Source: Eledone cirrhosa (lineage: Eukaryota). From it: a DNA stretch of 64,000 bases. The notes under the pieces are model-generated. The model saw nothing but the letters and a program-made list of their open reading frames with translations, did no database searches and had not been told where the DNA came from. Both the position numbers and the translations under genes were made by a program. The DNA lies in contig OZ024755.1 of the NCBI GenBank assembly GCA_964016885.1, positions 8,742,001 to 8,806,000 on the forward strand, read 5' to 3'. This document shows, piece by piece, positions 26,798-47,264 of the stretch (positions within the stretch are counted from its first letter, which is position 1; each line of letters opens with the position of its first letter).

Positions 26798-27018
26798 TAT
26801 TGAAGTTTCCGTTGAAAATTGAAAACGTCATAGGAGTGAAGAGTGCTCTATGTAAGTTACAGAGCTAAATTTAATGTATAATAAACAATACAATATAATT
26901 AGCTCATTACCAGAGGTTTCCCGAATAAGACGAACGACTGAGGACGTTTCTTGTATTCGTCTTATTCTGGAAACCTCTGGTAATGAGGTAATTATATTGT
27001 ATCGTTTATTATACATTA
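26795..27018 (-). mobile_element. Family B foldback PLE-like element with HHR 3' half
   Basis: Arms 26872-26934 and 26956-27018; tail 26795-26871. GAAACCTC tggtaat GAGGTA (26970-26990) forms a 5-bp stem III plus GUA. (TA)n on both sides. Confidence 0.7.
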
Positions 27019-31959: not shown

Positions 31960-32044
<85 letters not shown>

Positions 32045-32047
<3 letters not shown>

Positions 32048-32247
32048 CGAAGGAAATGTGGTAAGGAACTAGATGGACCATAACGCACCAAAGTACTCAA
32101 TACTTAGGGTAATAGAGTGGGTAATAGGAACGAGTAGGACCCCGACGGCTGAGCTCAAGCCGTTTCGACGGCTAATTCTGGACCCAGTGTCCAGAATTAG
32201 CCGTCGAAGCGGCTTGAGCTCAGCCGTCGGGGTCCTACTCGTTCTTA
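32045..32247 (-). mobile_element. Family C element with a near-perfect 60-bp hairpin and HHR 3' half
   Basis: Arms 32124-32183 and 32189-32248 (2 mismatches), loop CCAGT. Minus strand 32166-32144 is GAAACGGC TTGAGCTCA GCCGTC (stem III plus GUC). Tail 32045-32123. Confidence 0.85.
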
Positions 32248-33616
32248 TATATATATATATATATATATATATGCGTATGTTTGTTTGTGTTTATGTTCCA
32301 CAGGAATTTGTGTTTCATTCTTACAGTATCCCTAAAATAATATACCAGTCATGAACTGAGGTTCATTTATTATCTTTACCCTTCCTCAAAATCTGTTGGC
32401 CTTTCATCTAAATTTGAAATTAATATCATATAATAGAGATTAATAGATTATCTGAGTGATAAGCAGCATGATCATAAATACAGGTAGCCCATTGTCAGTC
32501 GACACTAACATGTCCACATGTACAATCATGAGTCATTGCATCAAAAGTGAATCTTTCACTCTCTCGCCCTCTTTGTCTCTCCCTCTCTCTCTATCTCTAT
32601 CTCAATGCCTTTCTCTCTCTCTCCCTCTTTCTACCTCTCTCTCACTCTCTCTCTCTCTCTCTCTCTCAGTCTTCTACTGCTTTCTGCCCTAATCTGTTGT
32701 GATTCAGCTGAAGGTATCAATTTGCATTTAAGCACATCCGTATCATATCTCATAAACAGTCTCCTCTGATTTCTTGAAACGAGAGACAAATTTAAGCCGA
32801 GTATTTAGTTATATTGCTGACCGAGTTTTCTCCAATATTACAGTTTTCACTGTAGAAATACCTATTCTTTGGTAACAAGCCTGTTTCCCTCAATCACAGA
32901 GTTTGACAACCTTTACACTCTTAAGAAGTATTTTTAGATTAAATATTTTCAATTAAAATTACAGTCAATTATTTGTTCCAGCAACAGTATTTATTATATT
33001 TTAAAAATACTTACAACAAAGAATGGATTTAGCTAAAAAAGAATTTCTTACTCAATGCAATTGAATCTTATCTGAAATTGTTTCAATATCTGTATCGACC
33101 GGTTCCTTTTAGCGTCGGTTACGGTCGAAACATTTAGTTTCCTCGGACACAAAACTGCTGGTTTGGTCTGTAAAATCGGGAAAACAGTAGTGTTTTATTA
33201 AAGAACATGCTAGATACTATCTCTTCCTTATTGATCGTATGGATATGTGTGCCCGTTGTGCCAGCGGTGTGTTGGTGATTGGTGTGTTTTGGTAGGGCAT
33301 CTGACTGGGCGCTCTGGATGTTGTTGTTAAGTAGTAAATCGTTTCTCTTTCCCATTTTTTTTTTAATGAAAGTTTAATGTATTATGCTTCTATGCAAATA
33401 AAGGAAATTATGTATGTTTGACTAAGTCATAATTGATCGATTCTCGTAGTGTTTGATATGACGAAATATCTTTGCATTATTCATATAGATGAACTGAAAT
33501 TCTTTGATATGAACTAAACAATTCGATTCAAACGTGAGGTGGTCTCTCTATATAAACATATAAATCTATGTATCTCTCCCCTTCTATCTCTCTATATATA
33601 TAGTTACATACATATA

Positions 33617-45653: not shown

Positions 45654-46130
45654 TACACACACAAACACACTCACACACACACTATCTCTCTCTCTATCTC
45701 TCTCTCTCTCACGCACACACACACACACATTAGCCTTTATACAGTGTTTCTAGAACTACATTCGTTCGTGGTTTAATGTAACACCAGTTGCTGCAACACT
45801 TCTCTCGTTGTCACCCTGTCGCATCACTTACAAACCCTGACACTGCAGCCCATATAGCAAAAGAGACAATGATTTCTAATTACTGGGACTTGACTGGCTG
45901 CTTTCTCTTCGTATCAGTCGATGTTAAAATCTCTGGTGTCTTCGGTGTCCGGTCTCTCCGAGGAAAGGACAGGTGAGGTAGAATCGCTGATGCAGTGGGT
46001 ATCACTGGCCGCACTCAGCACAGTGTTTAAGCCATCATGTTCGCAGAGCGCAGCTGAGATATACACTGAAAGCACGAATATAATGATTGCCCATACCTCT
46101 TTTTCTCTCTGTCTCTCTGTATATTGGCAA

Positions 46131-46323
46131 GGGGCGGTGGAGTGGCAGTATCAGTAGAGGGTCGGACGCCATCCTTTGCAGCATAGAGTTATAGCCCTTG
46201 CCATTCTGAGTTCAAATCCCGCCAAGGTTAACTATGCCTTTCATCCTTACGGGGTCGATAAAATAAAGTACCAGTAATGCACTGGTAAATGCTGTCCTTG
46301 TGCCAAAAGTAGAAACAATTATT
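46131..46323 (+). mobile_element. Full-length tRNA-derived SINE
   Basis: Starts GGGGCGGTGG; has A/B boxes, core and ATT tail. Confidence 0.9.
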
Positions 46324-46857
46324 TCAATTTTTCCTTTACAAATACATACAAAATTGTATATTTCTGTTCAACAACGAATATATATGATTATATTTAAATC
46401 TGTCGAGGTAGAGCTTGGCTGCTCTATCGAGGAAGTTTGGCTGCCTTTTATTGAGGGCGAGAAAACACGTAGGAGTTTCCCTTTTATTATTGGTCGAATT
46501 TGTTATTGTTCAAATTAAACTTTCATCTTTCCAGGGATAAATACAGCGTGAGTATGTGAAACATACATTGATTTACTAGACAAAACATTCTTCTCAACAA
46601 AATATATCGCTATGTGTAACATAGAAATCAATACGGACTGATCGTAATACATATCAAGACAATAAGATTATTCGGTCTATTAACCTCCTGTTTAGAGATA
46701 AAACATTTCAAATATTTATATGTATATTACACTCTGGTTCGCTCGGTTTCACCAACGTTCATCATCGAATAAAACACTTGATGTTGATCAGAGATCAAAC
46801 CAATTGAAACGTGCAATTTTATACACACACAGATATATACACATATATAGATATATA

Positions 46858-47166
46858 TATAATATAGAAGATCAAAAGATGATTAAAAGAGTTCCAAGTA
46901 TTTTATTATGCGCATTTCAAAAACAAATATCATCATGCGATGACATTTGTGTTTTCGTCAGATAAAATAGGGAGACATGATACGAAGGTTAAAAAACACT
47001 TGTGAATAGTGCAGTTTTAAATCAACGTAATCAAAATACATGGAACTCTTTTAACCATCTTTTGATCTTATATATTATTTATACTCCAGTCCTACACACT
47101 GTAGAGTGCTACTTATCCGATATCTGCATTGCTTTATTGTACTACAATAAAACTCACACCTCCTAC
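46858..47166. mobile_element. Family F element carrying the canonical HHR
   Basis: Inverted arms about 46858-46906 and 47028-47079; ~90-bp tail to 47166; TA-rich flanks. Confidence 0.75.
46899..46969 (-). ncRNA. Type I minimal hammerhead ribozyme with canonical core (family F)
   Basis: Minus strand reads UAUUUUAU-CUGACGA-[AAACACAAAUGUCAUC gcau GAUGAUAUUUGUUUUU]-GAAA-U GCGC A-UA/-AUAAAAUA. This gives an 8-bp stem I, an intact CUGANGA/GAAA core, a ~16-bp stem II with one mismatch, a very short stem III with a palindromic GCGC loop, and an AUA cleavage triplet (cut between 46907 and 46906). It matches the minimal HHRs described in Penelope-like elements. Confidence 0.85.
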
Positions 47167-47205
47167 ATATATATCTATATCTATATATATATATATATAT
47201 ACATA

Positions 47206-47260
<55 letters not shown>

Positions 47261-47264
<4 letters not shown>

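Follow-up and report, generated by a model that had tools for sequence, protein, structure and literature searches.

An intact hammerhead ribozyme, predicted to be dimer-dependent and probably silent where it lies, in a two-armed stub of a Hydra-clade Penelope-like element

The role of the hammerhead ribozymes carried by Penelope-like elements (PLEs) is still unclear (Craig et al. 2021, PMC8557442), and one in vitro study has found PLE hammerheads dispensable for insertion. In the passages of Cervera and de la Pena (2014, PMC4209133) that describe metazoan PLE hammerheads, these belong to type I and have a palindromic 15.2-16.2 segment, a large helix II, a dimer mode and low activity in vitro, occurring as pairs on opposite strands, with single motifs mostly in truncated PLEs. 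The C-terminal EN+ elements of the Hydra clade, as set out in sections of PMC8557442, have a single ORF for RT plus GIY-YIG at the C terminus, with DKT, a CxCx5C linker, CxxC and CxH around E and N, and no CCHH; their targets are (TA)n, and their copies show a sense hammerhead near the 3′ end, an inverted truncated arm and a one-sided tail. In Poseidon PAc of Anolis, passages of Frangieh et al. (2024, PMC11167929) report that two internal start sites define the tail. A further reference point comes from full-length L1 and SVA insertions, where an extra G at the 5′ junction is the mark of a copied cap (passages of PMC3287187). PLE transcription start sites lie in the pLTR. Here we describe an intact hammerhead in the pLTR of a Hydra-clade PLE, preserved in a two-armed 314-bp stub within a TA microsatellite, predicted to cut only as a dimer and likely silent where it lies, a reading that we hold at a probability of roughly 0.85.

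The window, a stretch of 64,000 nucleotides from Eledone cirrhosa, sits in a 3.0-Gb AT-rich animal genome. Its 314-bp stub has two arms inserted in (TA)n, and the ribozyme lies in the inverted one. We count positions from the predicted cut, with +1 as the first base past it. The inverted pLTR arm covers −123 to +53 (46854–47029, minus strand), is 91% identical to a full-length copy found elsewhere in the genome (L062) and has its 5′ end at the family's hot spot. Three bases that the arm alignment leaves ambiguous (47030–47032, no strand given) separate it from the direct arm (47033–47167, plus strand), which is 5′-truncated, begins near +3 (or at −2, allowing for an insertion of 1 nt) and ends at +135, is 93% identical to L062 and has no ribozyme core. 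Comparing where direct arms end with where inverted arms start delimits a one-sided PLE tail, +54 to +135, which occupies 47084–47167 (plus strand) and measures 82 nt in L062. A (TA)n-like remnant of the target lies on the left (46835–46853) and a (TA)n tract on the right (47168–47261). The joint at this hot spot, at 47026, also appears in public DNA runs from two studies, one of which may be the assembly's own sample. The stub is a dead member of a known clade, and with one ribozyme at the locus a dimer would need a second RNA.

The window holds several other repeats. A whole-window repeat search was swamped by microsatellites. At 26903–27015, adjoining (TA)n, a different hammerhead family, marked by its very long stem II, has left a fold-back stub; it is truncated and holds no complete core, and that family is complete in two other loci (L018 and L115). 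A further two-armed stub with a perfect inner hairpin lies between (TA)n tracts at about 32040–32265, and 46129–46332 is a separate 200-bp high-copy repeat that also occurs beside many of the family loci compared.

The hammerhead motif is real and intact. It occupies 46899–46969 on the minus strand, where it has a three-helix type I layout with open stem I ends and strong stems I and II. Stem I has eight perfect pairs (46969–46962 with 46906–46899), C3–A9 reads CUGACGA (46961–46955), and stem II (46954–46919) comprises 16 positions, 15 paired and one a C-U mismatch, under a 4-nt loop; G12–A15.1 follow at 46918–46915, and a 2-bp stem III with a GCGC cap leads to U16.1-A17, placing the predicted cut at 46907/46906. 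The type I core nucleotides are all present (C3-U4-G5-A6-N7-G8-A9, G12-A13-A14, A15.1-U16.1 and H17). The initial annotation had proposed just such a complete hammerhead, and its intact core, 8-bp stem I, long stem II and GCGC-capped 2-bp stem III were all confirmed. Its wording 'canonical minimal' was loose, as helix II has four times the length of the canonical 4 bp and is closed by A-U in place of the G10.1-C11.1 pair; with that pair lacking and a 2-bp helix III and 4-nt loop present, the motif is not a min-HHR in the strict sense. The self-complementary stem III that it had recognized stands, but the stretch is longer than GCGC, extending over 8 nt (46915–46908, positions 15.1–16.1, minus strand).

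A strict descriptor (stem I of at least 6, stem II of at least 3) found 0 matches in 300 dinucleotide-shuffled windows, whereas a loose one gave 0.14 matches per shuffled window; the second loose match in the window itself, at +26938, was rejected as part of another family's truncated stem II. Rfam returned no hammerhead at the gathering score, nor among 15 matches at E ≤ 10, and the long stem II probably falls outside its hammerhead models. The motif shares its type I form, palindromic 15.2-16.2 segment, large helix II and occurrence in opposite-strand pairs with the hammerheads described in PMC4209133, from which it differs in having a helix II of 16 rather than 7–8 bp, a helix I of 8 rather than 4–5 bp and no G10.1-C11.1. 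It also differs from Hydra-1_Obim and the other ribozymes listed in the relevant part of PMC8557442, which have a 3–4-bp stem III, 1–3-nt loops and a shorter stem II; the Octopus bimaculoides family in that paper's supplement is a different family.

Folding predictions favour cutting between two molecules. In ViennaRNA secondary-structure predictions, which ignore tertiary contacts and help from proteins, the monomer's minimum free energy (MFE) structure is not the active fold, which lies 4.9 kcal/mol above it (−10.9 versus −15.8 kcal/mol), and the 2-bp helix III of the monomer has a probability of 0.002. The active dimer, in which helix III grows to 8 bp, reaches −41.7 kcal/mol against −31.6 kcal/mol for two monomers; the dimer MFE itself contains both stems I and the 8-bp helix III, and the palindrome duplex alone (46908–46915) is worth −10.5 kcal/mol. 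The motif is thus predicted to be active only as a dimer, in agreement with Cervera and de la Pena (2014) and with passages of a review (PMC6765202), and the palindrome-mediated dimer mode anticipated from the sequence is supported both by these energies and by conservation of the palindrome. When a minus-strand RNA reads through the whole stub, the other arm is predicted to pair with +3 to +53 and capture the 3′ strand of stem I, whose pair probability falls to 0.00; forcing stem I costs 5.3 kcal/mol. Stem I is weak in the element's own context too (0.13–0.40 in L062). By these predictions, the hammerhead is likely silent at this locus.

We then turned to copies elsewhere in the genome, taking the first 100 tail matches on one contig as a tail-anchored sample. 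After 3 of the 100 loci were dropped as second views of one place, 97 supplied 111 arms spanning the whole motif. The core is intact in 102 of the 111 and the 8-nt palindrome in 96, bearing out the core conservation across genomic copies that had been named beforehand as a check. No variant is shared by at least five arms at any of the 11 core or 6 palindrome positions, against 20 of 100 flank positions with such variants (Fisher P = 0.026, H17 included); N7 shows a shared variant, and where shared variants hit paired stem positions the pair is kept in 8 of 8 cases. Across 15 distinct stem III segments, drawn from the window and 163 scanned loci and possibly including some chance matches or other ribozyme types, 24 of 28 unforced inner pairs are self-complementary. 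Judged from these alignments, core, stems and palindrome are kept in the copy-making lineages across subfamilies and sister families, indicating that the motif is under selection. Because most copies have an intact core, its integrity in this copy is itself uninformative.

The family is large. A 241-nt query returned 1,512 candidates, the 40 of them that were scored showing 86–95% identity, and the unit common to the matches is short and flanked by (TA)n. Exact patterns counted genome-wide place ribozyme and tail in line in 4,485 copies and find at least 7,155 family tails, with 0 matches to reversed control patterns; sister ribozymes with a UAURUA stem III number 48,738, and related hammerhead motifs at least 50,000. 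In 3 of 30 loci the tail runs on into an ORF. L062 is a full natural unit with a period of 3,709 bp and two ribozymes 3,709 nt apart, its start codon 218 nt past the upstream cut and its stop 1,094 nt (about 1.1 kb) before the next. The ORF encodes 798 aa, RT followed by a C-terminal GIY-YIG, with YRDD at residue 356, a GIY-YIG-like motif at 678, DKG changed to DKT at 123, the CxCx5C linker, CxxC and CxH at 657, 757 and 785, and no CCHH. Pfam recognized neither RT nor GIY-YIG in it and a PDB sequence search with the ORF returned nothing useful; in the nearest Atlas clusters, some of the members have HTH_animal, GIY-YIG or RVT_1. All these protein features match those given for the Hydra clade, as do the (TA)n target, the sense hammerhead near the 3′ end and the inverted arm with a one-sided tail. 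On the grounds of motifs, architecture and Atlas neighbours, we assign the parent to the Hydra-clade PLEs, and the PLE origin proposed at the outset is further supported by ORF-carrying copies such as L062. The element departs from the descriptions in PMC8557442 in its unit length (3,709 bp versus 1.1–3.0 kb in the listed Hydra families), its tail (82 nt versus the 30–40 bp stated for PLEs) and its N-terminal RWK position, which reads RWI, with RW present and K replaced by I.

Other GIY-YIG ORF remnants with the same cysteine linker (L061:7297–7881, minus strand, and upstream in L057) represent further Hydra-type families. A short ACTC...GAGT hairpin sits just behind the +53 site (47086–47113 in the window, plus strand) and recurs in sister families (L164–L193), which also show two 3′ ends about 85–90 nt apart. 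In L037/L038, L050 and L174/L175, head-to-head arms that both carry a full tail or a full ribozyme reach the ORF start, and such copies could give long double-stranded RNA.

To read which RNA had been copied, we compared the ends of 100 direct and 44 inverted arms in the tail-anchored sample. Direct arms end at +135 in 87 of 100 cases and at +133 in the other 13, and the 44 neighbouring inverted arms start at about +53. Their 5′ ends concentrate at −126 to −122, where 21 of the 100 direct and 27 of the 44 inverted arms begin, a hot spot common to five subfamily tags; about a dozen long arms that BLAST ended early at an internal duplication are counted as reaching beyond −126. The cut is crossed by 81 of the 100 direct arms, and an early impression, from a query-biased BLAST sample, that direct arms start there was rejected, as only 3 of 100 start within −3 to +4 (1.7 expected). 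Genome-wide, 4,186 arms start at −124 with a preceding base that differs from the C of the element, and G precedes the start in 2,041 of them (49%, a share inflated by ambiguous joints). When the first 100 G junctions were inspected visually, roughly half could be put down to the partner arm or to local duplication, and 8 were clean (TA)n-G-start joints. In the 97 loci, the base that precedes −124 (G 7, A 9, C 8, T 8) is uninformative, both strands of the joint being counted. The cut itself has 141 junctions, of which about one-fifth are deletions of 3 nt; a matched control site has 84 (P = 2 × 10−4) and another site 27. In four loci (L067, L074, L077 and L094), inverted arms start instead at −1051 to −1054, in an internal TA tract just past the stop codon (about 43 nt past it in L062), a third priming site; this suggests that the start is chosen in part through annealing with the (TA)n target.

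Since a copied cap leaves an extra G in L1 and SVA and PLE transcription starts in the pLTR, we read −124 as a capped start. L1 and SVA belong to a different retroelement class, and the G here marks short, pLTR-sized arms. The 4,186 arms at −124, set against 141 at the cut, point to a capped template that had not been cut, and we suggest that capped, uncut RNA is the usual template. The element would be transcribed from −124, upstream of the cut, and its enzyme would prime both strands of the (TA)n target at internal RNA sites, +53 giving the inverted arm and +135 the direct arm; short arms would extend to the capped end through the uncut ribozyme, and long arms would derive from a downstream repeat or a re-ligated circle. 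Two internal start sites, here 82 nt apart, recall PAc, where the passages of PMC11167929 place the starts within the ORF, at a position that lacks homology to the target; those here, by contrast, fall in the copy of the 5′ UTR and in the 3′ end, at UA-rich bases matching (TA)n. Those passages describe no fixed, G-marked 5′ end for PAc, nor did we find one reported for any PLE in the open-licence literature, though subscription journals and supplements may contain one. The copy ends point to genomic support for the in vitro result of Frangieh et al. (2024). A small share of templates may nonetheless have been cut, because junctions at the cut exceed the control and the direct arm of this very copy starts within 3 nt of it.

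On this footing, the hammerhead might act when two copies pair through the palindrome, for example in a tandem 3.7-kb transcript, whose cutting as a dimer could release an uncapped RNA of unit length. The cut separates the putative cap from the start codon, and also the ORF from the priming sites downstream. Cleavage would thus strip the message of its cap or sever those sites, which may limit the element or feed a circle route. Our tentative reading, held at somewhat less than even odds, is that the stubs record in vivo copying of capped, uncut RNA and that the hammerhead is a dimer-gated switch that restrains or diverts the element instead of serving to mature its template.

The model of Cervera and de la Pena, in which the ribozyme cuts tandem transcripts and re-ligates them into circles, would make circles the template of most copies. 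Circles would also yield the many cut-crossing direct arms, at least 2,343 arms read through −124 (counted via one subfamily's upstream sequence) and tandem copies with two ribozymes a unit apart exist; yet a circle has no 5′ end, and can explain neither the arms that stop at −124 nor their G. We find it doubtful as a general account, and possible for long arms only.

It seems unlikely, too, that −124 is merely a preferred stopping or joining point, at which cDNAs anneal at a short palindrome or RT stalls at a structure. The site is indeed a 6-nt palindrome, perfect fold-back joints are common (15 strand matches in 97 loci) and, of 29 paired insertions that have an arm ending there, 16 have both. 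Only one arm does so in the other 13, however, the ribozyme's own 8-nt palindrome, although the better one, attracts no pile-up (27 junctions), clean (TA)n-G-start joints exist, and the G frequency at −124 contrasts with about 14 of 80 and 9 of 84 at control junctions, counted by eye. Splicing or trans-splicing at −124 was ruled out, there being no AG acceptor upstream.

We consider it very improbable that the stub is a separate non-coding family, a retrozyme or MITE that borrows only PLE machinery. Short two-armed stubs are the commonest form and might themselves be transcribed and recopied, but in coding copies their sequence runs without a break into the 3′ UTR and the start of the ORF, five subfamily tags have the same ends and the arms are unequal, unlike terminal inverted repeats; L062 largely refutes the idea, and a metazoan retrozyme, as a non-autonomous non-coding family, is ruled out because members carry the ORF in continuity. 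Least probable of all is that host RNA transcribed across the locus on the minus strand is cleaved by the ribozyme, affecting a host gene: core and stem I are intact and perfect in this copy and large introns can exceed the window, leaving room for transcription, but no exon was recognized in any of 232 non-repetitive frames of at least 45 aa in the window (three weak Pfam matches, all below cut-off), the single ribozyme folds poorly as a monomer and in the stub context, and its intact core is the norm in neutral copies and so no sign of selection at the locus. Among public sequencing runs, no RNA run is listed as containing the locus sequence. The host-intron setting assumed by the initial annotation is not supported, and we do not regard the motif as the ribozyme of a host intron.

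The ribozyme itself is ordinary, a standard end piece of a known kind of retroelement. What the family adds is that a likely capped start outnumbers the cut site by about 30 to 1 among copy ends while the ribozyme stays under selection, with both start and cut predicted to the base. Copy ends thereby show, at little cost and over a large sample, which RNA was really copied. If the switch reading is true, the hammerhead would cut only when two ribozymes meet, removing the cap or the priming sites.
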